This document shows, one piece after another, positions 177-25,661 of a stretch of DNA of 32,000 nucleotides. The notes under the pieces were generated by a model that was given only the letters and a program-made list of their open reading frames with translations, was not told the DNA's origin and ran no database searches. Every line of letters starts with the position of its first letter. The stretch's first letter is position 1. Origin of the DNA: Syntrophales bacterium (lineage in GTDB: Bacteria > Desulfobacterota > Syntrophia > Syntrophales > UBA5619); contig JALNYO010000022.1 of the NCBI GenBank assembly GCA_023229765.1, positions 1 to 32,000 of the forward strand, read 5' to 3'. The translations under genes were made by a program, and so were the position numbers.

Positions 177-740
177 ATGGCAACAAAAAAGGTAGTGAAA
201 AAACCGGAGAAGTCATCCTTTGGGCGCCGCATGAAGGACGCCCGCGAAAAAATGGGGATCAGCATTGAGGATCTTGCCCTGGAGACGGGATATGTGCATG
301 AGAATCTGAGCGCGGTTGAAGAGGGAAGAAGTGTGCCGCCCGTTTCGCTTGTCCTCCAGTTAAGCCGTGCGCTGAAAATGAACATGGATGAGCCGGAGTC
401 CAATGGAAAGGGAAACGCCCCCAAAAGGCGCACCAAAGGTCACAAGATGCGGGTGGATTCCTATGCCTATACGGTGCTGAGCAAGCCGGGGACGGACAAA
501 CACCTGCGCGGCTATCTGGTGAACGTTGATGCCAACACCGAGCATAAAGGGGTGGAGTACCACCATGAAGGCGAGGAGTTTGAATATGTGCTGAGCGGGG
601 CCGTGACCGTTCAGGTCGGAGAAAATATAACAAAGCTTTCCAAGGGGGAAAGCATCCACTTCAATTCCGGGTTGCGCCACAAACTGAGTAACCCGAATTC
701 AGAGCCTGCCGAGCTTCTCGTTATCATTTACGTTCCCTGA
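177..740 (+). CDS. XRE-family HTH transcriptional regulator with C-terminal cupin domain
   Basis: 187-aa ORF. N-terminus (GRRMKDAREKMGISIEDLALETGYVHENLSAVEEG) looks like an HTH_3/XRE motif. C-terminus (HHEGEEFEYVLSGAVTVQVGE...GESIHFNSGLRHKLSN) looks like cupin_2. SD GAGGGGGG lies just upstream of the ATG. Confidence 0.8.
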   Translation: MATKKVVKKPEKSSFGRRMKDAREKMGISIEDLALETGYVHENLSAVEEGRSVPPVSLVLQLSRALKMNMDEPESNGKGNAPKRRTKGHKMRVDSYAYTVLSKPGTDKHLRGYLVNVDANTEHKGVEYHHEGEEFEYVLSGAVTVQVGENITKLSKGESIHFNSGLRHKLSNPNSEPAELLVIIYVP

Positions 741-757
741 ATTGGAGGAGAAAAAAG

Positions 758-1897
758 ATGGCTTTTGAACTGACCCAGGAACAAGAAATGATCCGGCTGA
801 TGGCGCGGGATTTCGCCAAAAAAGAGCTTGAGCCGTTTGCCGGAAAGTGGTCGCAGGAAAAGATCTTTCCGGAAGCGGCAATCAAAAAAATGGGTGAGTT
901 GGGACTTTTGGGAATGATGATCCCCGCTGAATACGATGGCGCCGGCGCCGGGGCGGTCAGCTATTGCCTTGCCCTTCAGGAGATCTCCTATGCCTGCGCC
1001 TCAACGGGAGTCACCATGTCGGTGACAAACCTCTCGTCCGATCCCGTTTTTAAATATGGCAGCGAAGAGCAAAAGCGGCGCTACCTGATGCCGCTGGCAA
1101 GTGGAAAAATGATTGGGGCATTCGCCGTTACCGAGCCGGATGCCGGTTCAGACCCCGGTTCCATGACAACCCGCGCCGAGGACAGGGGGGATCACTACCT
1201 GGTAAACGGTTCCAAGGTATTTATAACAAATGCCGGTTATGCCGGGGTTATTAATCTTATCGCCCGGACCGGCACTGATAAATCGAACCGGGGGCTTTCG
1301 GCGTTCATCGTGACCCCGGATATGCCCGGTTTCAAAATCGGCCGCAAGGAAGACAAAATGGGGCTGTGTGCCTCCAATACCGTCGAGCTCCTTTTTGATG
1401 ACTGTATTGTGCCAAAGGAGAATCTCATCGGCAAGGAGGGATTGGGATTTAAAATTGCGATGGTGGCCCTTGACAGCGGGCGCATTGGCATCGCCTCGCA
1501 ATCCCTGGGGATAGCCCGAGCCTGTCTCCATGAGGCTATCGAATACGCAAAGACCAGAAAGCAATTTGGCAAAAGTATCGGTTCTTTTCAGGCAATTCAG
1601 TGGATGATTGCCGATACTGCCGCGGAAATCGAGGCGGCCCACTGGCTGACGCTGGCAGCGGCGGAAAGAAAGGATCGGGGAATTCCTTTTACACGGGAAG
1701 CGTCGATAGCGAAACTGTTCTCCTCTGAGATGGCCAACAGGGCGGCATACCGGGCCCTGCAAATCCACGGCGGGTATGGATACATGAAAGAGTACAAAGT
1801 AGAGAGGCTTTACCGCGACGCCAGGGTAACCGCCATTTATGAGGGGACTTCAGAGGTGCAGCGGCTTGTGATCGCCCGCGAGGTCATGGCGGACTAA
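758..1897 (+). CDS. Acyl-CoA dehydrogenase (short/medium-chain, butyryl-CoA dehydrogenase-like)
   Basis: 379-aa ORF with family-typical stretches (GAFAVTEPDAGSDPGSM, FITNAG, QIHGGYGYMKEYKVERLYRDARVTAIYEGTSEVQRLVIARE). GGAGG SD present. Starts 17 nt after the regulator. Confidence 0.9.
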   Translation: MAFELTQEQEMIRLMARDFAKKELEPFAGKWSQEKIFPEAAIKKMGELGLLGMMIPAEYDGAGAGAVSYCLALQEISYACASTGVTMSVTNLSSDPVFKYGSEEQKRRYLMPLASGKMIGAFAVTEPDAGSDPGSMTTRAEDRGDHYLVNGSKVFITNAGYAGVINLIARTGTDKSNRGLSAFIVTPDMPGFKIGRKEDKMGLCASNTVELLFDDCIVPKENLIGKEGLGFKIAMVALDSGRIGIASQSLGIARACLHEAIEYAKTRKQFGKSIGSFQAIQWMIADTAAEIEAAHWLTLAAAERKDRGIPFTREASIAKLFSSEMANRAAYRALQIHGGYGYMKEYKVERLYRDARVTAIYEGTSEVQRLVIAREVMAD

Positions 1898-1927
1898 AGC
1901 TTATGGGTAATGAAGTCAAGACGATAA

Positions 1928-3127
1928 ATGCTGATTGATCCTTTAGATACGAGCAGGATTGCCATAATTGGACCGGGACGTCTCGGAACGTCCTTTGCGT
2001 ACAAGTTTGGCAGAGACGGTAAGCGTGTTGCCATCTACTACAAGGATGTGGACTTCTGCCGGTCTATTAACCGGGAGCACATCAACCCGAGGCATCTCAC
2101 CGAGGACATCGCCCGGCGTCTCGGCGGCATGGATCTGGTGCCCCGCCTCGCTGCGACTGTCAAGGCGACGAATGATCTCGACCGTATCGTAGATGAGAGC
2201 GACTTTATCTTTCTTTCCGTCACGATGGACCGTCTGCCCGAGATCCTCGATCAGATCGAACCGATTTTGCAGCGCAAGACAACCAATACATGCTTTATTT
2301 CGCCGATAAAGGGGCTTTCCGCCGTTGAAACGGTCTGCCAGCTTATAACCCCCTCGCAGCTTATCGCCAACCGTTTCTACCGAATGAGCGAAAAGATATC
2401 GATTGTTTCTTTGGGGGGGCCTTTTTTTGACATGGATGTCGCGCTGGGGAATCCAGTCTGTCTTACTGTGGCGGGGCCGAAGCAGATCTGCGCCACCATC
2501 CGCAAGGAGTTTCTCGGCGCCAATCGCCGGGAGCTGACCTCTCTGTATAATTTTGACATAGTCGGGGCGGAGGCCTGCGGGGCGCTCAAAAATATCGTGG
2601 CAAATTTAAAAGGGGTTACCGATTGCCTTGCGCTGGGCGATTCGATCCCGGGGACCATTTTCTCCCGTTCCGGAGTGGAGATTCGCGCTTTGTCAAAGAT
2701 TCTGGGGGGTAGCTTTCAGGCCTTTCAAAGCCAGGCCGGCGTCGGCGACATGTATGTAACCCTTGCGTCCGAAGCGAGCAAAAATCATCGTTACGGAAGC
2801 TATTTCTACGAGATGTTCAACGGCAATCCGGTTGATACCCACTTAAACGTACTAAAAAGGATAGACGGCAAACCGGAAGGCCCCAATACTATCTTGAACG
2901 TTCACAAGTTTCTGGAAAAGCGCAATATGTACAGCCCGATTTTTCACTGCGCGTATAAGATTTTCAACGAGGAGCGCAGCCGGGAGGGGATAAAGGAGCA
3001 GATCATTAATGCCACTCAGTTTGACCGCCGGACCAGAGAGTACATCGGTCCTGTTTCCCGATTGCTTTATCGCCTTTTCCCGAATCTCTGGTACCGGCGG
3101 CACCGGGGGTTACTTTCCAAACCGTAA
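1928..3127 (+). CDS. NAD(P)H-dependent glycerol-3-phosphate dehydrogenase (GpsA) family protein, divergent paralog with C-terminal extension
   Basis: 399-aa ORF. Has an N-terminal Rossmann motif (IAIIGPGRLGTSFA). GpsA-like blocks are INREHINPRHL, GGPFFDMDVA, GAEACGALKNIVA, GVGDMYVTLASEASKNHRYG. About 60 extra C-terminal residues relative to the GpsA length I remember. Confidence 0.7.
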   Translation: MLIDPLDTSRIAIIGPGRLGTSFAYKFGRDGKRVAIYYKDVDFCRSINREHINPRHLTEDIARRLGGMDLVPRLAATVKATNDLDRIVDESDFIFLSVTMDRLPEILDQIEPILQRKTTNTCFISPIKGLSAVETVCQLITPSQLIANRFYRMSEKISIVSLGGPFFDMDVALGNPVCLTVAGPKQICATIRKEFLGANRRELTSLYNFDIVGAEACGALKNIVANLKGVTDCLALGDSIPGTIFSRSGVEIRALSKILGGSFQAFQSQAGVGDMYVTLASEASKNHRYGSYFYEMFNGNPVDTHLNVLKRIDGKPEGPNTILNVHKFLEKRNMYSPIFHCAYKIFNEERSREGIKEQIINATQFDRRTREYIGPVSRLLYRLFPNLWYRRHRGLLSKP

Positions 3128-3277
3128 CTATAAGTTTTTCTGTATTTTTTTACTGATCGCCGGGCCAGTTCCATTTTTAGGTAAAAAATTTTGCTATAAA
3201 AAAAATGTTGACATGAATTGTTTGATTGTGTTAGGCGCAAACCACATATCAAATTAATAGTGTTCGGGGATAGACGC

Positions 3278-3337
3278 ATGGATTCAAAAAATGTAATGCT
3301 TTTCTGGTGGTGGCGGACGATAAGCGTCTGCCCTTAA
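3278..3337 (+). CDS. Candidate tryptophan leader peptide (19 aa, MDSKNVMLFWWWRTISVCP)
   Basis: ATG at 3278 is preceded by GGGGA 7 nt upstream. Three consecutive TGG codons sit at 3305-3313 and TAA at 3335-3337. It lies 154 nt upstream of trpB2 and is followed by a terminator hairpin. Too short for the ORF track. Confidence 0.6.
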   Translation: MDSKNVMLFWWWRTISVCP

Positions 3338-3395
3338 TCCTTTTAAAAGGGGTGTGGGCAGGGGGAAACCCTACCCATTGCTCTTGATAAGTCAT

Positions 3396-3437
3396 AAAAC
3401 AAAAGGCCATGGGAGGATCCCGTGGCCTTTTGTTTTG
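3396..3437 (+). terminator. Intrinsic terminator (attenuator terminator) between leader ORF and trpB2
   Basis: A 19-bp stem pairs AAAACAAAAGGCCATGGGA (3396-3414) with TCCCGTGGCCTTTTGTTTT (3418-3436), including one G-U pair. The loop is GGA. The GC-rich core is followed by TTTTGTTTTG. Confidence 0.7.
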
Positions 3438-3490
3438 TCTTGTCAGGAGCTTTTATCAACCAACTTTAAAAAGGAAAGGAGAAAATTGTT

Positions 3491-4849
3491 ATGCAGACTA
3501 AAGTCGTTCTTGAGGATTACGAAATCCCAAAACAATGGTACAACATCCAGGCGGATTTGCCGAAGCCGATGAGTCCGCCCCTCCACCCGGGGACTGGAAA
3601 GCCGGTTACTGCCGATGATCTTGCGCCGATTTTTCCAATGAACCTGATCGAGCAGGAGGTCAGTCAGGAGCGCTGGATCGACATCCCCGGCGAGGTGCTC
3701 GACAAGTACCTGCTTTGGAGACCGAGTCCACTTTACCGGGCGCGCAATTTCGAGAAACTCCTCGATGCCCCGGTCAAAATCTACTACAAAAACGAGGGAG
3801 TCAGCCCCGCCGGATCCCACAAACCTAACACGGCGATACCTCAGGCATATTACAACAAGGCCTTCGGGATTAAGCGCCTTTCGACGGAAACAGGCGCCGG
3901 GCAGTGGGGAAGCGCCCTTGCCATGGCCTGCCAGATGTTTGGTCTGGAATGCCGGGTATTTATGGTCAAAGTCAGTTACGAGCAGAAACCTTACCGGCGC
4001 TTGATGATGAATACCTGGGGGGCGAACTGTTTCGCGAGTCCAAGCAACCTCACCGAGGCCGGACGGCAGGTTCTCGCCGAACATCCCGATTCCCCTGGGA
4101 GTCTCGGGATCGCGATCAGCGAAGCTGTCGAAGACGCGGTTTCTCATGAGAACTCCCGTTACGCTTTGGGAAGCGTCCTGAATCACGTCATGTTGCATCA
4201 GTCAATCATCGGTCTTGAGGCGCAAAAACAGTTTGAGAAGATCGGCGAGTATCCCGATGTCGTCATCGGCTGTGCGGGTGGCGGCAGCAATTTTGCGGGC
4301 ATTTCCTTTCCCTTTGTTCGTGATAAAATCCACGGAAAGCAGTTGCGGATACTCGCCGCGGAGCCTGCCCTCTGCCCGACGATGACGCGGGGGCCGTTTG
4401 CCTACGATTTTGGCGATCTCGCCAAGAAAACGCCGCTTTTGCCGATGCACACCCTGGGCCACGATTACGTGCCTGCCCCCATTCATGCCGGCGGGCTCCG
4501 CTATCACGGAATGGCCCCCCTTGTCAGCCACCTTCTGAATTTAGGGCTTATTGAGGCGCAGGCATACAACCAGCTCGACACCTTCGATGCCGGCATTAAA
4601 TGGGCGAGAACGGAAGGGTTTATCCCGGCGCCGGAGACGACCCACGCCATCGCCGCCGTTGTCGCGGAGGCCCGGCGGGCGAAGGAAGAGGGAAAAGAGC
4701 GAACGATTCTCTTCAACTGGAGTGGTCACGGGCTGGTCGATCTGGCGGCCTATGACGCCTATCTCAATGGCAAACTGGAAGCATACGAGTTTTCCGACGA
4801 TGAGATGAAAAGGGCGCTCAAGGCGATCGAAGGCCTTCCCAAGCCTTAG
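3491..4849 (+). CDS. trpB: TrpB-like PLP-dependent enzyme, tryptophan synthase beta chain type 2 (TrpB2)
   Basis: 452-aa ORF. The long N-terminus ([30 protein letters not shown]) is typical of TrpB2. Also has [18 protein letters not shown] (PLP lysine region), [11 protein letters not shown] and [19 protein letters not shown] present. Confidence 0.9.
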
Positions 4850-4860
4850 AAAAGGGTAGA

Positions 4861-4904
4861 AATTCCGGGACCAGCCTTTTACAGGTGGTCCCGGAATTTT
4901 TTTA
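4861..4904 (+). terminator. Rho-independent terminator after trpB2
   Basis: A 13-bp perfect stem pairs AATTCCGGGACCA (4861-4873) with TGGTCCCGGAATT (4886-4898). It is followed by a T run through 4903. Confidence 0.75.
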
Positions 4905-5020: not shown

Positions 5021-5299
5021 ATGGAACGCAAGGATGAAAAAACAAGCGATTATAAAACCCTGATAATCAGATGTCCGCGCCTCGGCGGGGAAGTTCCCTT
5101 TGCCTACTGTGAAAAGGAGGGGGGCGATCTCCCCTGCCGAATGGTTGTGGGCTGCTGGGAGGGAGTATTTTCGGTCGAGGGTTATCTGCGGGAGACACTG
5201 TCAGAGGCAGCGTGGATAAGACTTAACAGTCAGCCGCCGAAGGATAAACTGACAAATATTCTCGATATTGTTGAGAAGGCAAAAAAACGAATAAAATAG
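5021..5299 (+). CDS. Hypothetical small protein with four Cys (possible metal-binding)
   Basis: 92-aa ORF. Cys at residues 18, 30, 39 and 45 (IIRCPRLGGEVPFAYCEKEGGDLPCRMVVGCWEG), with a basic C-terminal tail. Weak SD. I do not recognise a family. Confidence 0.5.
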   Translation: MERKDEKTSDYKTLIIRCPRLGGEVPFAYCEKEGGDLPCRMVVGCWEGVFSVEGYLRETLSEAAWIRLNSQPPKDKLTNILDIVEKAKKRIK

Positions 5300-7213: not shown

Positions 7214-9007
7214 ATGAATTTTGAAGAAAATACTACCCGTCTGCGGGGAGCTCACCGGTTCAAGCTTAGGTTTATTCAACCTTTCGCTGTCATCCTGGTC
7301 AGCGCCATTTTCATTATTCTTATCTTGACCATGGGCTTGATCGATATGCGGCGCAGTGAACGAATGCTGAGCGGCTTTATCGAAGATCAGGGCCGGCGGG
7401 TAATTGGGGTAGTGGAAAAGCTGACCGAGGAAAATCTGAAGAACATGATTGCGGCCTCTCAGAAAACTCCGGGAAGCGTCACCATCTCCCTGAAAGAGCC
7501 GATTTTTTCTCCCGATACGCTGCTGACCGAAAAGATCATCGCGATGGGCAGGGAAATAGACAATCACTGGAAAAAGGAGCATATCAGCGGTTCATACATA
7601 AGTGAATTCGCACGGAAAAAGAACATCTGGCTGGTAGCCGTCCTTAATGCCGCGGGTAATGTTATATTCCAGAGCCGGCCGGTCGCCGAAAACCTGCGTG
7701 CCGACGTTCAGGAGAAAAAAAACATAAAACAAAGCGCGGCGAAGCTTATCAAGGGGTTAAACACCCTGAACCGGCAAAAGAAAATCGGCTTTATTGCCAT
7801 GAGCCGCAGGGATGAAAGCGGAACCATTATTCTTGCCCTCGACCGGGAGAGTATGCGTTATTGGGGAATGAGGGTTTCCGTGGAACGGGCGATAGAGAAA
7901 CTGGGGAAAGGTCAGGGGCTCCTTTACCTCGACATAAGCGACGACAAGGGACATGATCTCGGCAGTATCGGGTACATGCCGGGAGAGGTAGGGCTGGATG
8001 ATTCGCTGAGAAGCGGCATTCTTTCCGGCTCCAGGAGGTTCGAAAGCAGGAAGACAAGCCGTGGAGAAAACAGCGTTCAGGAAATAACAGCCCCTTTTTA
8101 CCTCGGGAAAGAGATTTTGGGTGTTATTATTCTGGGCCTCGACCGGGGGAACACCGACAAAATATTGATGGAAAACAGGAGGAACGTCTATCTGTTTCTT
8201 GTTTTTGTGATTGCGATTACCCTGCTTTCTCTGTGGCTTCTTTACCATAATCAGAACCGGCACTTGGGGCGGGTAGTGGAGATGACCAGACAACTGGAAA
8301 AGGCTGAAAGGCTCTCCTCTCTGGGGATGCTTGCCGCCGGCGTTGCCCACGAGATTCGCAATCCGCTCAACGCGATCAGCATGGCCAGTCAACGTCTGAA
8401 GAGGGAATTCCCTCCTTCTGAACTGGGGAAGAAAGAAGAATTTGATACGATAACAACGGTCATCCGTGACGAGATCAGACGTCTGAACGGAATCATTGAG
8501 GAGTTTCTGACCTTTTCCAAAAGCCGGCGCCTGGAGCTGCGGGAAAGTGCCGTCCAGGATGTTTTACGGAAGATTGTGAATTTAGTTTCCGCAGAGGCCT
8601 CCGCGAAGGGCGTCAGTATCAGGACCGATTGGCCCGAAGAGCCGATCGTGATCCCGATGGATATGGACAAGCTCCAGCAGGCCCTGCTGAATTTTGTCAA
8701 GAACGCCGTGGAGTCGATCAGCGGCGCCGGAGACGTGACCCTTGCCATCCTCAATGAGGAAAAAGGTCTGGTTAATATCATAATCACCGATACGGGATGC
8801 GGATTGACACCGGAAGAGGTGGAGCGGATTTTCAATCCGGAATACACGACAAAGGAAAAGGGCCTTGGACTTGGTCTTTCGCTGGCCCACGAAATAATCC
8901 GCGGACATGGGGGAGAGATACGGGTGAAAAGCCAAAAGGGCGAGGGGACGGTGTTCGAGATATTTATGCCGACAGAAAGGCTCAATGAAAAGGCGGCTGC
9001 AAAATAA
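7214..9007 (+). CDS. Sensor histidine kinase (two TM segments, large extracytoplasmic domain, HisKA + HATPase_c)
   Basis: 597-aa ORF. TM1 is FAVILVSAIFIILILTMGLI and TM2 is VYLFLVFVIAITLLSLWLLY. H-box is GVAHEIRNPLN. N, G1 and G2 boxes are NFVKNAVES, DTGCGL and GLGLGLS. Confidence 0.85.
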   Translation: MNFEENTTRLRGAHRFKLRFIQPFAVILVSAIFIILILTMGLIDMRRSERMLSGFIEDQGRRVIGVVEKLTEENLKNMIAASQKTPGSVTISLKEPIFSPDTLLTEKIIAMGREIDNHWKKEHISGSYISEFARKKNIWLVAVLNAAGNVIFQSRPVAENLRADVQEKKNIKQSAAKLIKGLNTLNRQKKIGFIAMSRRDESGTIILALDRESMRYWGMRVSVERAIEKLGKGQGLLYLDISDDKGHDLGSIGYMPGEVGLDDSLRSGILSGSRRFESRKTSRGENSVQEITAPFYLGKEILGVIILGLDRGNTDKILMENRRNVYLFLVFVIAITLLSLWLLYHNQNRHLGRVVEMTRQLEKAERLSSLGMLAAGVAHEIRNPLNAISMASQRLKREFPPSELGKKEEFDTITTVIRDEIRRLNGIIEEFLTFSKSRRLELRESAVQDVLRKIVNLVSAEASAKGVSIRTDWPEEPIVIPMDMDKLQQALLNFVKNAVESISGAGDVTLAILNEEKGLVNIIITDTGCGLTPEEVERIFNPEYTTKEKGLGLGLSLAHEIIRGHGGEIRVKSQKGEGTVFEIFMPTERLNEKAAAK

Positions 9008-10377
9008 TGAAAAAACTAAATATACTGGTTGTTGATGACGGTCGTTCTCAGCGAGAGATGTTGAGGGATTTCCTGAAAAAGGAGGGGCACTCGGTCGGCG
9101 AAGCGGAAAACGGGCCACTGGCCATTCAGCAGGTCAGAGATGGACACTTCGATCTGCTGCTGCTCGATTATAAAATGCCCGGCATGGACGGGATGGAGGT
9201 TTTGCAGGCGATTAAAAAGATAAATCCCGAGATCGATGTCGTGATCATAACCGCGTTCGGGACGATCGAGACGGCCGTGGAGGCGATGAAGGCGGGCGCC
9301 TTGGATTATATAACGAAACCTGTTGAATTCGAAGAACTTCTTCTTTTGGTGGAGCGCGTCTCGGAACGGAGGACGCTGATCAGGGAAAATGAAATTCTCC
9401 GCGAACACCTAGGTCAGAAAGGCGTTTCCACGGATAAAATAGTCTTCCGCAACGAGAAGATGGGCGCCCTGATCAATATGGCAGGAAGGGTTGCAGCAAG
9501 TCGGGCGACGATCCTGCTGCAGGGGGAAAGCGGGACGGGCAAGGAGCTTTTTGCCCGCCTGATCCACAATTTGAGTCCGCGGTCGGAAGGAAGAATTATT
9601 GCCGTTAATTGCGGCGCCTTGAACGAGAATCTGTTAGAGAGCGAGCTTTTCGGCCACGAAAAGGGGGCGTTTACCGGCGCTGCCGCGCGTCGGATCGGCC
9701 GGTTCGAGGAGGCGGACGGGGGAACGCTTTTTCTCGATGAAATCGGCGAGCTTTCGCCGCAGGTTCAGGTGAAGCTGCTGCGGTTTTTGCAGGAGCGGGA
9801 GTTTCAGCGTCTCGGCGGCAATCAGACCCTTCATGCCGATGTCCGGGTGATAAGCGCGACAAACCGCGATCTGGAAAAGATGGCGAAGGGAGGAGGGTTT
9901 CGCGAAGATCTCTTCTACCGGCTCAATGTCGTTACAATGCAGTTGCCGCCGCTTAGGGAACGTAAGGAGGACATCCCGCCGCTCATTGACCATTTTCTTG
10001 TTCGCTATGCCAAGGAAAACTCCAGGGAAATTGAGGGGACAAGCAGCGAGGCGCTGGACATGCTGCTCAAATACGACTATCCCGGAAACGTCCGGGAACT
10101 GGAAAACATCATAGAAAGAGCGGTCGTTATTGCCCGGGAAGATGTTATCTCCGTTGCCGATCTTCCTTTTGGCGAGGGAATCGAAGAAACGGACGGGGGA
10201 AAAAAGACGGAGGATGGGGCTCTGCGTCAATCGGTTGAGGAGCTGGAAAGAAAGTTGATTGCCGAGGCGATGGAAAAAACCGGCGATCATCAAAGCCGCG
10301 CGGCCGCGCTTTTGGGCATCAGCGAAAGGATGCTCCGCTATAAGCTAAAAAAATACGGTCTGAAGGCGGGGCAGTGA
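9007..10377 (+). CDS. Sigma-54-dependent response regulator (NtrC/AtoC family: REC + AAA+ + Fis-type HTH)
   Basis: 456-aa ORF. REC domain has ILVVDD...[16 protein letters not shown]+ domain has GESGTGKE and the GAFTGA motif (EKGAFTGA). C-terminal HTH is [20 protein letters not shown]. Its start overlaps the kinase stop (TAATG). Confidence 0.9.
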
Positions 10378-10547: not shown

Positions 10548-11489
10548 TCAACGGAAGAGTGCGCGTATTTTTTCTAAACGGTTTTCCTCCTCCCGGTAGA
10601 GGCGATGTGCCTCCTCGATGGAGGTCTGTGCGAATCTTACGATGCTGCCGGGCAGGGCTTGGGCCACTTTCTTGATATCTGCTGTGGTGACGGTGACGAT
10701 TTTAGAGTAGCCCCCGGTTGTCTGTTCCACCAGTAGAATGATAGGTTGGCCATCGGCAGGAATCTGAATGTTTCCCGGCACAACAGGCTCGGTTATAATG
10801 CTTTTGGGCGCATCCGGGTCATGCTCGATCAGAGGTCCCCTAAGTCTGTATCCCATTCGGTCGCTTTGCGCCGTTGCCTCAAAGCTTGCTGTAAAAAATA
10901 GGTTGAGCGCGCGCTTAAAGGAGTCCGCCTGCGGTCCCGGGATTGCCCCCAATACAATCTCTTTTGGATATTCCGGAATAAATTCAGGGGGGAGGAGGCG
11001 CGGCCGCTCCAGCAGGGCGGCTTTGCCCTTTTTCAATATATCCCCCTTCACCAGCGCCCGTCCCTGGAAGCCGCCGAAGCCGGCCCGGACGAAAGTGGAG
11101 CGGCTTCCCATGACAACCGGCGCAGCAAACCCGCCGTTCACCGCAAGATAGGCCCGGCATCCCTTTTCCGCTCGGGGAATCCTGATGACATCCCCTTTTT
11201 TTATCCGTATGGAACGCCACGCCGGGGCTGGACTTTTGTTGATTGTCATTCCCATTTCCGCGCCGGCGATCGCGATATCGGCCGCCGCCATCGCCTCAAA
11301 AAGGGGTCCCATGACCGTTATTTCCAGAACGCCCATGTTTTCCTGATTTCCGACAAGCAGATTGGCGATGCGACAGGCAAAGGAGTCAAGCGCTCCGGAA
11401 GGGGGGACTCCTCTGTCGAGAAAGCCGAAACGGCCGAGATCCTGGATGGTCGTGAGCGCTCCTGGGTTTTTGACGATAAAAAGATCCAT
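10548..11489 (-). CDS. pxpC: 5-oxoprolinase subunit C (PxpC; KipA / allophanate hydrolase subunit 2 family)
   Basis: 313-aa ORF with family-typical N-terminus (PGALTTIQDLGRFGFLDRGVPPSGALD) and GGYSKI block. Its start overlaps the pxpB stop by 1 nt. Confidence 0.85.
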   Translation of the reverse strand: MDLFIVKNPGALTTIQDLGRFGFLDRGVPPSGALDSFACRIANLLVGNQENMGVLEITVMGPLFEAMAAADIAIAGAEMGMTINKSPAPAWRSIRIKKGDVIRIPRAEKGCRAYLAVNGGFAAPVVMGSRSTFVRAGFGGFQGRALVKGDILKKGKAALLERPRLLPPEFIPEYPKEIVLGAIPGPQADSFKRALNLFFTASFEATAQSDRMGYRLRGPLIEHDPDAPKSIITEPVVPGNIQIPADGQPIILLVEQTTGGYSKIVTVTTADIKKVAQALPGSIVRFAQTSIEEAHRLYREEENRLEKIRALFR

Positions 11490-12202
11490 CAGGAGCGTTC
11501 CTTTTCATATAATCGTTTGAATTCATTCATAGATATGGGTTCGAAGCGGATGCGGTCGCCCGCCTTGTAAAGAAAAGGGTTTTCTCTCTCCGGGGCGAAC
11601 AGCCTTAGCGGCGTTTTGCCGATTATCTGCCATCCACCGGGACTTTCGATGGGATACATGCCGGTCTGCATCTCCGCTATTCCCACGGAGCCGGCGGGAA
11701 TACTGACGCGCGGCGTTTCCCGGCGGGGAGTTTTCAGCCTTTCGTCCATCCCTCCGAGATAACAGAACCCCGGTGTGAAGCCGATCATGTAAACGGGATA
11801 TTCGCGGGAGGAGTGGATATGGATGATTTCTTCGGTTTTGAGCCCCGTATGCGATGATACGATGTCGATGTCTGGTCCCCATTCATCGCCATAGCAGACG
11901 GGAATGGAAACAATCTGCATTTCCGGCCGGAGCGCGTTGTTGTGGTAATTTTCGATGCTGCTTATTTCCCTTTTCAATGTGTCCGGTTCTGTCAGGAGGG
12001 GATCGTAAAGAATAGCAAAGGAGCGGTAAGCAGGCACAACGGCTTGTACCCCCCTGGGAGGATTCTGGCGAACCAGCGAAGAGATTGCGAGTACTTTTTC
12101 GTTTACGGAAAGATCGATGCCCTCGCCGTAATCAACCAGCAGCGCCCGGTCCCCGCTCAGTCTGAAATGCGGTTCGTCAAAAAGATGAGGCATAGTTTCC
12201 AA
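11489..12202 (-). CDS. pxpB: 5-oxoprolinase subunit B (PxpB; KipI / allophanate hydrolase subunit 1 family)
   Basis: 237-aa ORF with VPAYRSFAILYDP, YMIGFTPGFCYLGG, and a cyclophilin-like C-terminus (GVYPIESPGGWQIIG-type: MYPIESPGGWQIIGKTP). Confidence 0.85.
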   Translation of the reverse strand: METMPHLFDEPHFRLSGDRALLVDYGEGIDLSVNEKVLAISSLVRQNPPRGVQAVVPAYRSFAILYDPLLTEPDTLKREISSIENYHNNALRPEMQIVSIPVCYGDEWGPDIDIVSSHTGLKTEEIIHIHSSREYPVYMIGFTPGFCYLGGMDERLKTPRRETPRVSIPAGSVGIAEMQTGMYPIESPGGWQIIGKTPLRLFAPERENPFLYKAGDRIRFEPISMNEFKRLYEKERS

Positions 12203-12207
12203 AACGC

Positions 12208-12975
12208 TTAATTTAAAGACCTGACCCCAATCCCTTCGGTTTCGAGAGCCAGTCTTATTGCCTGGGTATGTTTAACAGCGGAGGGGTTGTCGCCATGCAG
12301 ACAGAGGGTGTGGATTTCCATCTGGAGCCGGGAGCCGTCAACGGCGATTACTTCGCCGTCAATGGCCATCCGCAGGGCCTGCTCGACGCTCCGTTTAGGA
12401 TCCTCGATCACGGCGCCGGGACGCTTGCGCGAAGTGAGTTTACCGTCCGGGTCGTAGGTGCGATCGGGAAACGCCTCAAAGGCGACCCTGATCCCCGCTG
12501 CGTCGGCGATTTTTCTGGCCAGAGGAGCCTGGGCGCCGCCCAGGACGACCCAGATAAGATTGCGATCGACCGCGGCGATTGCCTCCGCGATTGCCCGGGA
12601 TAGATTTTCATTGCCGACGCTCATGTTGTAGAGATTGCCGTGCGGCTTTACATGCTGCATTTTTGCCCCGTGCAGGCTGCAAAAACCATTTAACGCGGCA
12701 ACTTGGTAGATGACAAAGTCGCGAACCTCAGCGGGGGTGCAATCCATGTTGCGCCGTCCGAATCCGACCAGATCGGGGTATCCGGGATGCGCGCCTACGG
12801 CAACGCCGTTTTCCCAGGCAAGCTTCACCGTTTTGCTCATAACCTGCGGATCGCCGGCATGGTACCCGCAGGCGATATTCGCGGAACTTATGTGTTTTAT
12901 CACCTCGCCGTCCATGCCGAGGGTGTAGGCGCCGAAACTCTCGCCCATGTCGCAGTTGATGTCAATTTTTTTCAT
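12208..12975 (-). CDS. pxpA: 5-oxoprolinase subunit A (PxpA; LamB/YcsF family)
   Basis: 255-aa ORF with DINCDMGESFG, SSANIACGYHAGDP, GAHPGYPDL and HVKPHGNLYN. AAGGAG SD lies 6 nt upstream. Confidence 0.9.
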   Translation of the reverse strand: MKKIDINCDMGESFGAYTLGMDGEVIKHISSANIACGYHAGDPQVMSKTVKLAWENGVAVGAHPGYPDLVGFGRRNMDCTPAEVRDFVIYQVAALNGFCSLHGAKMQHVKPHGNLYNMSVGNENLSRAIAEAIAAVDRNLIWVVLGGAQAPLARKIADAAGIRVAFEAFPDRTYDPDGKLTSRKRPGAVIEDPKRSVEQALRMAIDGEVIAVDGSRLQMEIHTLCLHGDNPSAVKHTQAIRLALETEGIGVRSLN

Positions 12976-13058
12976 TGCCGACTCCTTTGATGAATCAGGA
13001 AATGTCGCTTGCCCTCATCTATTGTTCCAGCCTCGCTTAAAGTTGCAACGGAAAGGGG

Positions 13059-14369
13059 CTACTTGCCGATCATCCGGTTCGGCAGATAAAGGGCGATTTC
13101 CGGAAAGACCGTAAGCAGAATGGCGGCCAGCAGCATAATCAGAAAAAAGGGAAATGCCGCCTTGGCGATCGTTCCCAGGTTGTCATTGTTCAGTCCGCTG
13201 ATGACGAACAGATTGAAACCAACCGGCGGCGTTATCTGGGCGATCTCGATCATCAGGACAAGGTAGATGCCGAACCAGACCGTGTCGAATTTTGCGGCCT
13301 GTATCAAGGGTACGACGATCGGCGTCGTCATGACGATCATCGAAAAGCCGTCTATGAGGCAGCCGAGAACGAGATAAAGGGCTGTCAGAATGACGATCAG
13401 CATGTAGGGGGAAAGTCCCATTTCGGTTACCAGCGTTGTCAGCGCCCGGGTAATTCCCATGTAGCCGATAACGTTGGAAAGGTACGCCGCCCCCATGACG
13501 ATCAGCATGATCATGGAGCTTGTCTTGACCGTGCCGATGAGACTCGTTTTGAAAACCCCCCAGTCAAGACTTCTGGTGATCAGGGCAAAAAACAGGGCGC
13601 CGATGACGCCGATTGCCCCGGCTTCCGTCGGCGTCGCCCAGCCCATGTAGATGCTGCCGAGGACGAAGAGAACAAGAATGACGACTGGCAGGATGGCCGG
13701 AATGGCGAGGAAACGCTCCTTCCATGTGTTTTTCTCAGCGCTGCGCGGCGCCATCTCGGGCGAAATCAGGCAGCGAATAGTTATATAGCCGCTGAACATG
13801 ATGGCGATCAGGAAGCCGGGGATGAAACCGGCAATGAAGAGCTTGCCGATGCTGACATCCCCGATTATTCCGTAAACAAGCATCATCATGCTGGGCGGGA
13901 TCATGAACCCCAGTGTTCCCGCTCCGGCCAGCGATCCAATCGACAGGCTGTGGTCGTATCCCCGCTTTTCCAGCTCCGGGATGGTTATCTTACCGACAGT
14001 GGCGGTAGTCGCGGCGGAAGAGCCGCTAACGGCGGCAAAGAAGGTGGAGGCGAGAATATTCACATGGATAAGTCTCCCCGGGATGGAGTCCATCCACGGA
14101 GAGAGCCCTCGGAAGAGATTTTCCGAAATGCTGCTGCGGAAGAGGATCTCCCCCATCCAGATGAAAAATGGCAGCGCCATCATCGCCGAGCCGCTGGTGT
14201 TGTTCCAGGCGATATTTGCCAGAATGGAGCCGAAGGAAACGTCGGTGAAAATAAAAAAACTCCCCATGCCGACGAGAAACAGGGCGATCCCTATCCAGAT
14301 CGATCCTCCTAAGAAAACGATCAGAAGGGCTACAATGACTGCGGAAACTGTTCCTATATCAACGTTCAC
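13059..14369 (-). CDS. dctM: TRAP transporter large permease subunit (DctM family)
   Basis: 436-aa, highly hydrophobic multi-pass ORF with DctM-like blocks (GIALFLVG..., FFAAVSGSSAATTATVG, PPSMMMLVYG). Confidence 0.9.
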   Translation of the reverse strand: MNVDIGTVSAVIVALLIVFLGGSIWIGIALFLVGMGSFFIFTDVSFGSILANIAWNNTSGSAMMALPFFIWMGEILFRSSISENLFRGLSPWMDSIPGRLIHVNILASTFFAAVSGSSAATTATVGKITIPELEKRGYDHSLSIGSLAGAGTLGFMIPPSMMMLVYGIIGDVSIGKLFIAGFIPGFLIAIMFSGYITIRCLISPEMAPRSAEKNTWKERFLAIPAILPVVILVLFVLGSIYMGWATPTEAGAIGVIGALFFALITRSLDWGVFKTSLIGTVKTSSMIMLIVMGAAYLSNVIGYMGITRALTTLVTEMGLSPYMLIVILTALYLVLGCLIDGFSMIVMTTPIVVPLIQAAKFDTVWFGIYLVLMIEIAQITPPVGFNLFVISGLNNDNLGTIAKAAFPFFLIMLLAAILLTVFPEIALYLPNRMIGK

Positions 14370-14419
14370 CGGGGTTTCTCCTTTTGACCGAAAACAAAGA
14401 GTTTTTTTCGCTGTTTGGG

Positions 14420-14956
14420 TTATCTCCCCAGTTCATCGGTTTCCTCCAGGATGACGAGACCTTCCGTGTTATTTTTTAAAATTGCGATTCCCTTAAGAAA
14501 TTCAGATAAAAACTGAAGCATGAACAAAAAGGAACCGAGGGGAAGGAAAATCTGCGGGATTGCCAGATAGCTTTCGGTAATCTGCATGGACTGTGTTTTA
14601 TTGACGACGGAATCCCAAAAGAAAACAAACGTATAGCGTGTAAGCGCCATGCAGAAGAGAAAACCGGCGAGCGAACAGACCATGTTGTAAATTACCCGCC
14701 GTTTCCCCCGCAAAAGGTGCGTCATTACCAAGACCCGGATATGCCCACGTTCGCGCAATGTATAGGCAAGACCCATGAAGGTAAGCATCGACATCAGATA
14801 TCCAGAATACTCGTCTGAAATATAGATGGTTTTGCCGAGAACGGACCTCGTGACGATTTCCGCAACCACTATGATTAGAGCAATGGCGACCAACAGGCCG
14901 GAAATTCCGCCGCTGAAGCCGGAAACCCGATCAATGGCGGTGATAATTTTTTTCAT
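14420..14956 (-). CDS. dctQ: TRAP transporter small permease subunit (DctQ family)
   Basis: 178-aa ORF with about four predicted TM helices, located between dctP and dctM as in canonical TRAP operons. Confidence 0.8.
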   Translation of the reverse strand: MKKIITAIDRVSGFSGGISGLLVAIALIIVVAEIVTRSVLGKTIYISDEYSGYLMSMLTFMGLAYTLRERGHIRVLVMTHLLRGKRRVIYNMVCSLAGFLFCMALTRYTFVFFWDSVVNKTQSMQITESYLAIPQIFLPLGSFLFMLQFLSEFLKGIAILKNNTEGLVILEETDELGR

Positions 14957-15011
14957 CGATAATTCTTTCTTTACCTCTCGGCACCGGAGTAATAATCCGG
15001 CGTCTGTTTGT

Positions 15012-15065
15012 ATGAAAATCCCCCCATCCCCCCTTTGCCAAAGGGGGGCAAGGGGGGATTTTCAT
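15012..15065. repeat. Nested G/C-tract inverted repeat (long hairpin) in the dctP-dctQ intercistronic gap
   Basis: The outer 14-bp stem pairs ATGAAAATCCCCCC (15012-15025) with GGGGGGATTTTCAT (15052-15065). The inner 9-bp stem pairs CCCCCCTTT (15028-15036) with AAAGGGGGG (15040-15048). It sits in a 243-bp gap inside an otherwise tight operon. Confidence 0.6.
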
Positions 15066-15199
15066 GCTTCGTTGTGCCCCACGGGCATGGGGGTTTATAG
15101 GGCAGTTCTAATTATGAAAGACAAGACCGGCAGCGCGTTGACAATTTTCCAAGTTTGCCGATATTGTCTATACGAAAATTGATTAGTTAACAGGCTGTC

Positions 15200-16192
15200 T
15201 TATCGTTTTACCCTCTTCATGAACTCGTCGTAAATCTTTTTGCCATCCGCCGGTGCGCCTTTGAGCCAATCGGCGCGGATGCCTTCGGTAATTTTTTCCA
15301 GCTCGCCCACCATTTTGGTGGAGGGCTTCACCGTTTCAATGCCGTTTTTGTTGCTGATGGCTTCCTGCTCCTTGTCCCAGGTCTTGACGTTTGCCCACAT
15401 TGTGCCTTCCAGCTCGCGTCCGATCTTCACGAGCAAGTCCTGCTGGGCCTTGGGAAGCTTGTTGAACGCCTTCAGATTGACGGTAACCATGTCGGTCGCG
15501 ATGGTGATGTTCAGGGGTTCAAAGTACTTAAGCACTTCCCAGAACTTGCCGTCAACGGCGGTCGGCGTCGAGGTCATGACGGAATCGATGAGGCCGGTTT
15601 GCAGAGAAGTATATACCTCGCTGAACGGAAGCGCGAACGGGGTTGCGCCGACTGCCTCCATCACCAGGGCGCCGTTCTTGTCGTAGGTTCTTGTCTTCAA
15701 CCCTTTGAGTTCCTGAAGGGTGGTAATCTTTTTCTTGGTCCAGAGACCGGCGCCTGGCCAAGGGGCGACGTAGAGGATTTTCTGCCCCCATTTCTTGGCG
15801 CTTTTGTCAAAGTAAGGACGGGAGATGTCGAGCAGAAGCCGCAGTTCGTCGAAATTCCGTACGAGGAACGGGAGGGTGACGATCTGGAAGGACTTCTCGT
15901 CTCCCGCCACGCCGCTGATGAGCATGTCGGAGACGGGAACAAGCCCGTCGCGCACGGCCTTCAGCAGATCCGGGCCCTTGTAGCCCAAGGCGCCGCCGGT
16001 GCTGACCACCACTTCCAGGTCGCCGTTTGTCGCCGTTTTCACTTTTTCAGCGAAATCCGTGAGGCCGACGCTGTGGAGATTTTTGGGAGGCCATACCGAA
16101 TTGGCGTTCCAAACCGTTTTGGCGAGGGCGGGAGTAACAGTCATCCCCAAGATAAAGGCACATACCAACAAGACGCGAACAACTTTTTTCAT
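15200..16192 (-). CDS. dctP: TRAP transporter substrate-binding protein (DctP family)
   Basis: 330-aa ORF with a signal peptide (MKKVVRVLLVCAFILGMTVTPALA). DctP-like body, first gene of the TRAP operon. SD AAGGGGA present. Confidence 0.9.
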   Translation of the reverse strand: MKKVVRVLLVCAFILGMTVTPALAKTVWNANSVWPPKNLHSVGLTDFAEKVKTATNGDLEVVVSTGGALGYKGPDLLKAVRDGLVPVSDMLISGVAGDEKSFQIVTLPFLVRNFDELRLLLDISRPYFDKSAKKWGQKILYVAPWPGAGLWTKKKITTLQELKGLKTRTYDKNGALVMEAVGATPFALPFSEVYTSLQTGLIDSVMTSTPTAVDGKFWEVLKYFEPLNITIATDMVTVNLKAFNKLPKAQQDLLVKIGRELEGTMWANVKTWDKEQEAISNKNGIETVKPSTKMVGELEKITEGIRADWLKGAPADGKKIYDEFMKRVKR

Positions 16193-16328: not shown

Positions 16329-17792
16329 TCACCGACTGGTTCCCGGTGCAACGTGCCTGGTTTTGATAACCACCCGGACCACTGGAGGTTTGCCGCTCAC
16401 AAAACGGATATCCTTGGGGTAGCGAAGCGAGGGGGTGAAAGCTCGCTGGACATCCAGTTGCGACAAATCAACCGGATCGGTGATGATTCGGACCCGTTTG
16501 CCGCTGAGAGTTTTAGGAATTAGCACCCGCGCCTCCCTTGGCGTCACCGTAATCGACTCTACCTCAATGCCGGCAGGAGGCTTGTTATCGGTAATGGCCT
16601 CGATTGGCACGCTCACCGGTAGGAGACGAGAGGTTGACACGATGACCCTCTCCGGGCTTATGCTGGTCACACTAAGATTCGGCGCATTTTTTACCATTTT
16701 TCCCGTCAGTAATATTTCCTGCTTTCCCGGACGGATTTTTTCAAGATCAAGCGATATTTTCAGGTCGGCAGGATTAAGCAGCTGCAGTGCCTGGGCGTGT
16801 CCCATCAGCATTACATTGGCTTCCGCAATTTTTGGCTCTTCTATAACCAGCTCCATGGGCGCGTTGAGGTACTCGATCGGCACTGCGAATTCCCGCCGGA
16901 TTATCTCCCGCTGATAGCCGAAAACAACCCACAAGATGCAGGCCAGAACGATGGCGAGAACCTTCTCGCGCGTATTCTCCTTGAGCCATCGGAGGAAAGG
17001 TTTCTGACGGGAAAGGGCGCCGTTTTTCTCGAAAAAAGCTTCCAACTCAACTCGCAGGGCAGACGCATTGGCAATTTTTCTAATTTTTTCTCCGCTGGCG
17101 AGGGAAATATCGCCGCTTTCTTCGGAGACCACGATGCAGATGGCATCCGATCTTTCCGAGAGTCCCAGCGCTGCGGTATGCCTGAGACCAAGGTTGCCTT
17201 GAGTGGAGGCATTGGCGGAAAGAGGAAGGTGGCATCCGAAACGCATGACCCGATTGCCTTCGACAAGGACGGCGCCGTCATGACCCGAGGAATGGGGATC
17301 GAAGACGCTGTCGAGCAGAGCCTTGCTGATGACTCCCGCTAGTTCGTTACCACCGGTAAGGTGACGGTCCAGAGGATCCTTCCCCTGAATAACGATCAAG
17401 GCGCCTATTTTCTTGCGTGCAAAATCGGCCGCTGTTTCCGCCAGGATATCGGTGCTTTCGTTGAAGGAGGCGGCCGGCGAGAACATCTTGCGGAAGTGTC
17501 CGAGCATGGCGAGCCGCTCAAAAAATCGGCGCAGATCCTCCTGAAAAATAACGACAAGAACGAAAAGCAGGATTGCAAAGAAGGACTGGAGAAAGACGGT
17601 GGTCAGATAGAGTTCGAAGAAACGGGCGATGATATAAATAGCGCCTAAAAGCGTGATTCCAAAAAAAACAAAACGCGACGCCCGATCCTTGAACCAGATG
17701 AGGATTGCCGAGATCATGAACGAGATGATCGCGATATCAAGTATATCCAATAAACGGATCATTTTTATAATCTTCAGGGCATATTCGAGCAT
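16329..17792 (-). CDS. cdaA: Diadenylate cyclase CdaA fused to YbbR/CdaR-like domains
   Basis: Three N-terminal TM helices, then a DAC domain (GALIVIQG, HDGAVLVEG, GLRHTAALGLSE, ICIVVSEESGDISL). Next come a fourth TM helix (VLAIVLACILWVVFGY) and about 170 aa of YbbR-like repeats (FAVPIEYLN...). The start is uncertain: the ORF extends to 17861 with ATGs at 17861, 17819, 17792 and 17762. I chose 17792 by comparing N-terminal spacing with the B. subtilis CdaA sequence as I recall it. Confidence 0.8.
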   Translation of the reverse strand: MLEYALKIIKMIRLLDILDIAIISFMISAILIWFKDRASRFVFFGITLLGAIYIIARFFELYLTTVFLQSFFAILLFVLVVIFQEDLRRFFERLAMLGHFRKMFSPAASFNESTDILAETAADFARKKIGALIVIQGKDPLDRHLTGGNELAGVISKALLDSVFDPHSSGHDGAVLVEGNRVMRFGCHLPLSANASTQGNLGLRHTAALGLSERSDAICIVVSEESGDISLASGEKIRKIANASALRVELEAFFEKNGALSRQKPFLRWLKENTREKVLAIVLACILWVVFGYQREIIRREFAVPIEYLNAPMELVIEEPKIAEANVMLMGHAQALQLLNPADLKISLDLEKIRPGKQEILLTGKMVKNAPNLSVTSISPERVIVSTSRLLPVSVPIEAITDNKPPAGIEVESITVTPREARVLIPKTLSGKRVRIITDPVDLSQLDVQRAFTPSLRYPKDIRFVSGKPPVVRVVIKTRHVAPGTSR

Positions 17793-18069
17793 GGCGAATC
17801 CCGTTTGGGTTCCCTTCATGTGAAAGAGGGTAATTTCCCGGGTAAGGCAGTTCCTTCCCATTTTTTTCTTAAGGACATATAACCAAAAGCCCTTATAAGT
17901 GTCAAGAAATTATCCGTTGCGGGGAAGAATACCTGTTTCACGAAGCTATTTGTCCTACGATAACGCCTCTGGATTTACGCGTACATGTTTTTATTGTATT
18001 TTTTATGCGGTCTCGGATATATTCAGCGGCGAGGGCGAAAGGTCGCCGCTGCTATAAGTGGGAGAGGCT

Positions 18070-22850: not shown

Positions 22851-22934
22851 TGTGTATATTAATAAACAGAGAAATTTGCATGCGCGCAATTCCCTGGATT
22901 GTTCCGCAACCTAAGCCTCTCTGCCCTTGAATAT

Positions 22935-23882: not shown

Positions 23883-23935
23883 CTTGTGACTCTATCTCCA
23901 TTTTGAACATTAGCCACGCTCCCGAACCATCTTCC

Positions 23936-25633: not shown

Positions 25634-25661
25634 TAAAACCTCCAAATTTATAACGTTATTT

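Follow-up and report, generated by a model that had tools for sequence, protein, structure and literature searches.

A predicted tryptophan-codon leader-peptide attenuator upstream of stand-alone trpB2 genes in Syntrophales and related Desulfobacterota

Introduction

Transcription attenuation mediated by the ribosome is a textbook mechanism, and several leaders of this kind have been described for amino acid genes. In the Escherichia coli trp leader trpL (Rfam RF00513), tandem UGG codons just before or inside segment 1 sense charged tRNA-Trp, the stop codon follows a few codons later, and four segments pair alternatively (1:2, 2:3, 3:4), with a terminator located before the structural gene. 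The hisL leader of E. coli and Salmonella, which precedes a biosynthetic operon, is a relay of six segments, in which the pairings A:B, C:D and E:F (the terminator) alternate with B:C and D:E, and where a stall at the run of seven His codons frees the second segment. The leader trpL of Sinorhizobium meliloti trpE(G) carries three consecutive Trp codons and controls only a single gene among those of a trp regulon that is dispersed (PMC6614838); it has four segments, and its target is anthranilate synthase, the first step of the pathway. In actinobacteria, UGG-run leaders were predicted before trp operons and before the isolated trpS2 of Streptomyces avermitilis, with segments that are conserved through several pairing partners (PMC1262725). 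Here, we describe a leader of this type in front of trpB2, the gene of a TrpB-like enzyme, in a 32,000-nt stretch of a Syntrophales bacterium genome (contig JALNYO010000022.1; hereafter the window, to which positions refer unless they follow the name of another locus), and we propose that a ribosome-mediated attenuator very probably couples trpB2 expression to charged tRNA-Trp.

The leader of the window resembles E. coli trpL in the position of its UGG codons, in its early stop codon and in the terminator before the structural gene, but has six segments instead of four. The six-segment relay, as well as the predicted release of the second segment by a stall at the regulatory codons, recalls hisL, whereas the codons are three Trp instead of seven His and the target is a single trpB2 instead of a biosynthetic operon; the likeness to the Rfam family RF00514 (His_leader) is architectural only, with no sequence homology. 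The three consecutive Trp codons are shared with S. meliloti trpL, which differs in phylum, sequence family and number of segments and controls the first step of the pathway, while trpB2 would provide a salvage-type last step. The actinobacterial attenuators, which resemble this leader in their UGG runs and in segments held by several partners, belong to a different lineage and have different sequences. The gene called 'trpB2' ('trpB2A') in C. diphtheriae was rejected as a precedent, since it is a second trpB beside trpA and not a stand-alone TrpB2-family gene (PMC1262725). Our search of the full-text literature found no Trp leader in these lineages, nor one preceding a stand-alone TrpB2-family gene, although many subscription papers lie outside such a search and a prior mention is possible; both the attenuator family and trpB2 as its target appear to be undescribed.

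TrpB2 enzymes make tryptophan from indole, for which they have a very high affinity, and are seen as indole scavengers (Hettwer and Sterner 2002, as cited in PMC2700814 and PMC11535334). In Geobacter, trpB2 is found inside trp operons (PMC2700814).

Leader ORF, terminator and pairing segments

The element lies in a 363-nt intergenic gap between a glycerol-3-phosphate-dehydrogenase-like gene (1928-3127) and the gene of a 452-aa pyridoxal phosphate (PLP) enzyme. This part of the window holds the following features:

3266-3270, plus strand: Shine-Dalgarno (SD)-like GGGGA for the leader open reading frame (ORF), read directly, 7 nt 5' of the ATG
3278-3337, plus strand: leader peptide ORF of 19 codons plus stop, MDSKNVMLFWWWRTISVCP, with ATG at 3278 and TAA at 3335-3337
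3305-3313, plus strand: three consecutive Trp (TGG) regulatory codons, near-invariant alignment columns
3394-3438, plus strand: intrinsic terminator, the attenuator, with a stem of 19-21 bp, a loop GGA and the U tract at 3428-3436
3491-4849, plus strand: trpB2 (TrpB-like PLP enzyme, 452 aa; NF009057, TIGR01415)

An earlier note on this DNA had read from the sequence an SD-preceded ORF of 19 codons with three TGG codons, a 19-bp terminator with a U tract and the trpB2 ATG at 3491, and all of them are present where that note placed them. The terminator stem (3396-3414/3418-3436) comprises 19 bp, extendable to 21 bp, with the U tract UUUUGUUUU, and has an energy of -32.3 kcal/mol (z = -7.5). A scan of the window with consensus promoter and terminator rules picked up neither this terminator nor the conserved promoter described below; the terminator was missed because stems longer than 20 bp and an interrupted U tract fall outside the rules of the scan.

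Between the Trp codons and the terminator loop, the RNA can be divided into segments with alternative partners:

3312-3319, plus strand: segment 1 (GGCGGACG), which begins inside the third Trp codon; the 1:2 hairpin has -13.6 kcal/mol
3325-3333, plus strand: segment 2 (CGUCUGCCC), partner of 1 or 3, coding for the conserved V-C-P tail of the peptide
3337-3353, plus strand: inner hairpin (UCCUUUU/AAAAGGG), which stacks under 2:3 and stabilizes the antiterminator; the fold of 3325-3364 has -19.1 kcal/mol
3354-3364, plus strand: segment 3 (GUGGGCAGGGG), partner of 2 or 4
3369-3378, plus strand: segment 4 (CCCUACCCAU), partner of 3 or 5
3409-3416, plus strand: core of segment 5 (AUGGGAGG), terminator 5' arm and loop, partner of 4 or 6

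Five pairings had been drawn by hand in the earlier note (1:2, 2:3, 3:4, 4:5 and the terminator), and each was recovered at its proposed position. Helix 1:2 joins 3312-3319 with 3325-3332 (8 bp including one G.U), 3:4 joins 3355-3363 with 3369-3377 (-14.4 kcal/mol), and 4:5 joins 3370-3378 with 3409-3416. The core of 2:3 pairs CTGCCC (3328-3333) with GGGCAG (3356-3361); this pairing exists as drawn, but its strength had been understated, as 7 outer bp (3327-3333/3356-3362) sit on the inner hairpin (3337-3343/3347-3353) and together reach -19.1 kcal/mol. Relatives carry an analogous GCUC...GAGC inner hairpin. Folded without any constraint, the region 3270-3445 adopts exactly 1:2, 3:4 and the terminator as its minimum free energy (MFE) structure, with -76.1 kcal/mol compared with a shuffle mean of -48.5 (z = -6.5).

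Conservation of the leader among trpB2 relatives

A scan with one genome per species provided 80 loci with a TrpB2 that is 76-87% identical, obtained from Syntrophales (Syntrophus, Smithella), Desulfobacterales, Syntrophobacterales and unclassified Desulfobacterota metagenome-assembled genomes (MAGs). In a first pass, 50 loci showed a short ORF with two or three consecutive Trp codons (WW/WWW) 140-430 nt upstream of trpB2. A uniform criterion was then applied to the 72 loci with at least 450 nt of upstream DNA: an in-frame WW/WWW mini-ORF lies upstream of trpB2 on the coding strand in 48/72, compared with 1/72 when the opposite strand is read and 0/72 in the 450 nt that lie further upstream. 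It is this conservation which marks the leader as non-chance, and not its single occurrence, since a lone TGGTGGTGG per 32 kb is not significant (at least one present in 15/100 shuffles). Three further loci have slightly altered runs, namely WRW (L020), WWRQ (L036) and WWW (L039). The run always shares its frame with a start codon located 8-25 codons upstream and with a stop codon 15-39 nt downstream, and in close relatives a purine-rich GGAG/GGGG stands 7-12 nt 5' of the leader start codon.

Before the W run, the leader peptides vary freely in length and sequence, whereas after it they are conserved, typically as ..FWWWQ(T/A/V)...VCP. This tail is the translation of segments 1 (GGCAGAC) and 2 (GUCUGCCC), and its conservation therefore reflects a constraint on the RNA and not on the peptide. 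The earlier note had also remarked on a peptide core similar to E. coli TrpL. The local likeness is real (WWRTS versus WWWRTIS), but there is no evidence of homology, and most relatives have WWWQ(T/A/V)..VCP; we reject homology and regard the likeness as coincidental, as the residues follow the RNA stems and the Trp_leader model has no match here.

We aligned 46 leaders (alignment A1), starting 12 nt ahead of the W run and ending where the U tract of the terminator ends. The consensus reads GGCAGRC for segment 1, GYCUGCCC(A/G)C for segment 2, GUGGGCAGGG for segment 3, CCUUCCCAUG for segment 4, GCCAUGGGAA for segment 5 and UUCCCAUGGC for segment 6, which is followed by U5-9; a T5-9 run after the terminator is found in all relatives. 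The alignment has 20 invariant columns, its Trp-codon columns are near-invariant, and the W run directly adjoins segment 1 in 46/46 leaders. Segment 4 is a near-copy of segment 6, and segment 3 of segment 5, which, judged from the sequences, is the signature of competing helices.

Pairing is kept in both alternative states. In the terminator state (1:2, 3:4, 5:6), 92.5% of the cells are paired compared with 41-53% in slid controls, and changes on both sides occur in 14 pairs and 62 cells; 0/500 shuffles reached the cell count or the covariation score. Helix 1 (1:2) is 95% paired with 3 covarying pairs, and helix 3 (the terminator) 96% with 4 covarying pairs. In the antiterminator state (2:3, 4:5), 91.5% of the cells are paired compared with 37-50% in slid controls, helix 4:5 is 92% paired across the 46 sequences, and pair 49:87 shows a clean switch from C-G to U-A in 8 sequences of the Smithella group. 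The check proposed with the original reading, to compare the upstream regions of trpB2 orthologs, thus revealed the W-run mini-ORF with the same chain of segments in three Desulfobacterota orders, together with stems that are kept in both states and show some compensatory changes.

A covariance model (R1) built from this alignment gives the window 91.5 bits (E ~2e-22). The strong plus-strand matches of the model are all located upstream of trpB2, while the weaker ones are mostly opposite-strand echoes of the same hairpins. It also recovers a leader cut by the contig end (L041) and one that consists of segments 3-6 only (L048). A simple pattern, TGGTGGTGGCRGN{9,17}CTGCC, proved too unspecific when compared with metagenomes; among the matches listed, only one looked genuine (L141; weak in the model, with 32.8 bits).

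The six-segment relay is the architecture of most loci, including the window. A form found in Desulfobacterales (L029, L032, L034, L035, L045, L046, L047, L052, L065) has a T6 run after 3:4 and then the 5:6 terminator, i.e. tandem terminators, and these terminator-like hairpins lie ~110-150 nt after the W run. Syntrophobacter-like loci (L068, L075, L040) show the classical four-segment form, in which 3:4 is the terminator. The comparison of these sequences suggests that the six-segment relay arose through duplication of the 3:4 hairpin.

Such strong conservation could also point to a second function, in which the ~190-nt leader RNA released by attenuation, the WWW peptide or both would, in addition to attenuation, act in trans on further trp genes. 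This addition, which would leave the attenuator itself in place, has parallels in S. meliloti, where the trpL attenuator RNA (rnTrpL) regulates trpDC in trans (PMC6614838) and a trans role of the peptide peTrpL, which likewise contains WWW, is indicated in a preprint (bioRxiv 10.1101/864512), and the segments are indeed unusually conserved, with their 20 invariant columns and across three orders. However, the two partners of each segment already explain the high conservation, and the peptide N-terminus is not conserved, so that we consider a trans function improbable.

Ribosome position and selection of the fold

We then imitated the ribosome by masking parts of the window, with 3270-3318 or 3270-3324 representing the A site on the first or third UGG, respectively, and 3320-3348 the footprint on the stop codon. 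With the Trp codons masked in either way, 2:3 is the MFE structure for transcripts ending at 3365 and at 3380; as 2:3 (-19.1 kcal/mol) is still preferred once segment 4 has been made, it beats 3:4 (-14.4 kcal/mol). When the masked transcript ends at 3420, the MFE structure combines 2:3 and 4:5 (-34.9 kcal/mol). Masking of the stop-codon footprint instead yields 3:4 and the terminator.

The relatives behave in the same manner. The RNAalifold consensus of the 46 leaders folds into 1:2, 3:4 and 5:6 without a mask, into 2:3 with segment 1 forced unpaired and the end placed after segment 3, and into 2:3 plus 4:5 when the end is moved after segment 5. Among the single-sequence folds, 40/46 form 2:3 and 4:5 when masked and ended after segment 5, and 42/46 form 3:4 and 5:6 when left free. 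The stop codon, located 15-39 nt after the first UGG, lies in the 1:2 loop or just past segment 2, and owing to this placement a terminating ribosome would always cover segment 2.

Both folding checks suggested with the earlier reading therefore came out as expected: masking of the Trp codons and segment 1 lets 2:3 replace 3:4, after which 4:5 sequesters the 5' arm of the terminator, and masking of the stop codon leads to 3:4 and the terminator. The claim that the terminator is replaced by 4:5 upon masking needs a restriction, as it holds for transcripts that end after segment 5 but not for the full-length RNA of the window and of 38/46 relatives. With this restriction, the logic proposed earlier, in which a stall leads to read-through and arrival at the stop codon to termination, is strongly favored by the masked folds and the conservation, and we hold it to be highly likely.

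The resulting model is as follows. Transcription would start from the conserved promoter (~3208-3237), and a ribosome would translate the 19-codon leader. If Trp-tRNA is scarce, this ribosome is predicted to stall with a UGG (3305-3313) in the A site and to cover segment 1 (3312-3319), so that segment 2 (3325-3333) could pair with segment 3 (3354-3364) as soon as it is made, aided by the inner hairpin. Segment 4 (3369-3378) would then be free to capture segment 5 (3409-3416) before segment 6 is transcribed, the terminator could not nucleate, and the polymerase would read into trpB2. If Trp-tRNA is plentiful, the ribosome would reach the UAA (3335-3337) and cover segment 2, or leave and allow 1:2 to form; 3:4 would follow, segment 5 would remain free, and the 5:6 terminator with its U tract would stop transcription at ~3436. 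The model predicts that a change of segment 4 from CCCUACCCA to GGGUACCCA would abolish read-through. Our computations show which elements exist, that they are conserved and that they can pair in two mutually exclusive registers; the geometry of the ribosome footprint, a terminator pre-empted kinetically and a tryptophan response are inferred.

Several observations weigh against this attenuator. First, the terminator is still thermodynamically preferred in the full-length masked RNA, both in the window and in 38/46 relatives, and read-through must consequently be kinetic, with 4:5 formed before segment 6 exists; a 4:5 helix of 8-12 bp would have to trap a hairpin of -32 kcal/mol. For the trp and his leaders of E. 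coli, such kinetic pre-emption is accepted, and we do not take the thermodynamic preference as a refutation of attenuation, as the classical trp leader shows it likewise. In eight Desulfobacterales sequences, 4:5 remains the MFE structure even at full length. Second, the covariation of the antiterminator is thin, with double changes in 4 pairs only and not above shuffles by this measure, as each segment is bound by two partners. Third, the leader SD of the window is of moderate strength only. Fourth, the element is missing in at least 17 of the ~75 loci with enough upstream DNA, and two leaders (L061, 2630-2830; L067, 2760-2975) keep all hairpins with 53-66 bits in the covariance model but are reduced to a single Trp codon (..FIWRQ.. 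and ..YVLWQV..), which together make the element dispensable. These two leaders may be weakened or decaying attenuators.

In most of the leaderless loci, trpB2 stands directly 3' of a gene similar to the glycerol-3-phosphate dehydrogenase or of an acyl-CoA dehydrogenase gene. One locus from a Syntrophus aciditrophicus-like MAG (L003, 2404-2995; TrpB2 85% identical) has a 590-nt spacer before trpB2 without a leader. A frame of this spacer, ..WIPAFAGMTKK.., resembles what we take to be a translated repetitive extragenic element, and the attenuator seems to have been replaced there.

Promoter and transcription unit

Further signals flank the leader and trpB2:

3208-3213, plus strand: TTGACA, predicted -35 hexamer of the promoter for leader and trpB2; its spacing to the leader ORF is kept in nearly all related loci
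3227-3237, plus strand: predicted -10 region TGTGTTAGGCG (extended -10-like TGTG plus TAGGCG)
3476-3482, plus strand: SD of trpB2, AGGAGAA, ~40 nt past the terminator and outside the attenuator structure
4859-4903, plus strand: strong hairpin with T7 that ends the trpB2 unit (-31 kcal/mol, z = -8.3)

The promoter pattern, TTGACA-N17/18-TGTGTTAGG, is located between the upstream gene and the leader, and TGTG(T/C)TA is kept across loci 15-18 nt after TTGACA. Given that the trpB2 SD lies ~40 nt beyond the terminator, control would act on transcription and not on translation. The strong terminator directly 3' of the trpB2 stop indicates that the gene is monocistronic in this genome; a comparable terminator follows trpB2 in only 12/78 relatives.

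Loci that bear the leader have different genes upstream, with the one similar to the glycerol-3-phosphate dehydrogenase in only some of them, which argues that the hairpin is not merely a terminator of the upstream gene. This bears on a competing explanation, in which the mini-ORF would be a chance occurrence beside an ordinary terminator that belongs to the upstream gene (1928-3127), and trpB2 would have a constitutive promoter located after 3440. Taken alone, a TGGTGGTGG in 32 kb is not improbable, and an A tract in the terminator complements its U tract, as in bidirectional gene-end terminators. Nevertheless, the terminator lies 270 nt past the stop of that gene, the conserved TTGACA promoter separates the two, leader and hairpins are the same in loci with a different upstream gene or none, both alternative pairings are conserved, and a conserved promoter between 3440 and 3491 was not seen. 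We regard a chance arrangement as hardly credible.

Upstream of the element, an HTH-cupin regulator, an acyl-CoA dehydrogenase and the gene similar to the glycerol-3-phosphate dehydrogenase form a cluster (177-3127, plus strand), which is syntenic with trpB2 in many Syntrophales loci. Clusters of this type and trpB2 may be co-transcribed in the at least 17 leaderless loci.

Comparison with known RNA families

The curated Rfam 15 models, including T-box and riboswitches, gave no match at gathering threshold over the 32 kb. The Trp_leader model (RF00513) has no match at gathering threshold in the window, nor at E <= 10 in 3100-3520. The best leader-type score was obtained with His_leader (RF00514), which covers 3:4 and the terminator with 24.6 bits (E = 0.058) compared with a gathering threshold of 49. 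The sub-threshold matches in 3100-3520 (miRNA precursors, His_leader, ylbH, PyrR) were dismissed, as they merely fit the big hairpin.

These results speak to a terminator/antiterminator switch under the control of a protein or ligand (TRAP-like, T-box-like or a riboswitch), next to which the mini-ORF would be incidental and untranslated. Leader translation is a prediction, and the modest SD of the window would agree with such a switch. On the other hand, no family, be it T-box, riboswitches, PyrR or others, reaches its threshold, and no GAG/UAG repeat array is present; moreover, the W run is always in frame and absent from the other strand and from neighboring DNA, and the stop codon is always placed such that a terminating ribosome covers segment 2. 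Control by a protein or ligand is accordingly very improbable in our judgment, and the leader-peptide attenuator remains the preferred explanation.

ORF92 and other genes of the window

A further conserved gene follows trpB2:

5021-5299, plus strand: ORF92, a 92-aa protein with four Cys, directly 3' of trpB2 in ~60/80 loci (tblastn)

Its motif, IRCPRLGGEVxFxYCx8PCx5CW, has four invariant Cys. ORF92 has no match in Pfam or NCBIfam, its AlphaFold (AF2) model has a pLDDT (predicted local distance difference test score) of 63, and Foldseek found nothing in the PDB at E < 1. It is likewise located 3' of trpB2 in distant loci without a Trp leader (L201-L203; 1830-2096 in L201 and 4001-4270 in L203), even where rarA is not adjacent. 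Because a terminator separates the two genes in only 12/78 relatives, the pair is probably under the control of the attenuator in many species, and trpB2 and ORF92 are probably co-transcribed in most relatives. One might tentatively go further and consider the attenuator as an unrecognized Trp-starvation unit of Desulfobacterota, mostly a two-gene module of trpB2 and ORF92, in which ORF92 would be a partner of TrpB2 and syntrophs would scavenge the indole of their partners when tryptophan is low; this scenario is possible but rather doubtful at present. In such a module, one could imagine ORF92, for instance, as a metal-dependent accessory that helps to handle indole or phosphoserine, as a substitute for TrpA, or as a regulator.

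Elsewhere in the window, genes for a TRAP transporter (DctP/Q/M) precede those for LamB/YcsF and for the carboxyltransferase subdomains A-B and C-D (5-oxoprolinase-like pxpA/B/C; 10548-16192, minus strand). Near this cluster we found a two-component pair of the sigma-54 type (7214-10377) as well as a protein with a DisA domain (16329-17861). All these genes between 7214 and 17861 appear to be unrelated to the attenuator. In addition, mnmE (TrmE), jag/khpB (Jag_N-KH-R3H) and yidC stand in a row (21453-25645, minus strand). In many bacteria, the order mnmE-jag-yidC adjoins rnpA/rpmH/dnaA, which suggests that the window may lie near the origin of replication.

Discussion

The regulated gene belongs clearly to the TrpB2 family, with 748.8 bits for NF009057 (cut-off 366) and 659.3 bits for TIGR01415 (cut-off 518.85), whereas the canonical TrpB model TIGR00263 gives 149.9 bits and thus stays below its cut-off of 392.45. 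No other trp genes were found among the Pfam-annotated ORFs of the 32-kb window, where trpB2 stands alone. If a stand-alone trpB2 is preceded by a sensor of uncharged tRNA-Trp, this is good, although inferential, regulatory evidence for a role of TrpB2 in tryptophan supply, as the enzyme would be in demand precisely when tryptophan is short. The earlier note had called such a leader direct regulatory evidence; the evidence is indeed regulatory, but indirect, and context evidence had already come from Geobacter (PMC2700814).

TrpB2 is widespread, and its physiological role has so far been deduced mostly from enzymology, i.e. the use of indole with high affinity, and, for a few genomes, from the context of the gene. 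A leader before the stand-alone gene indicates that TrpB2 would be raised specifically under Trp limitation in these anaerobes, which fits tryptophan supply or indole salvage rather than unrelated PLP chemistry. Moreover, the leaders of Syntrophales, Desulfobacterales and Syntrophobacterales add a well-supported family of leader-peptide attenuators that is missing from Rfam, and their four-segment, six-segment and tandem-terminator forms represent variants of one design, which are useful for genome annotation and for understanding the evolution of attenuators.

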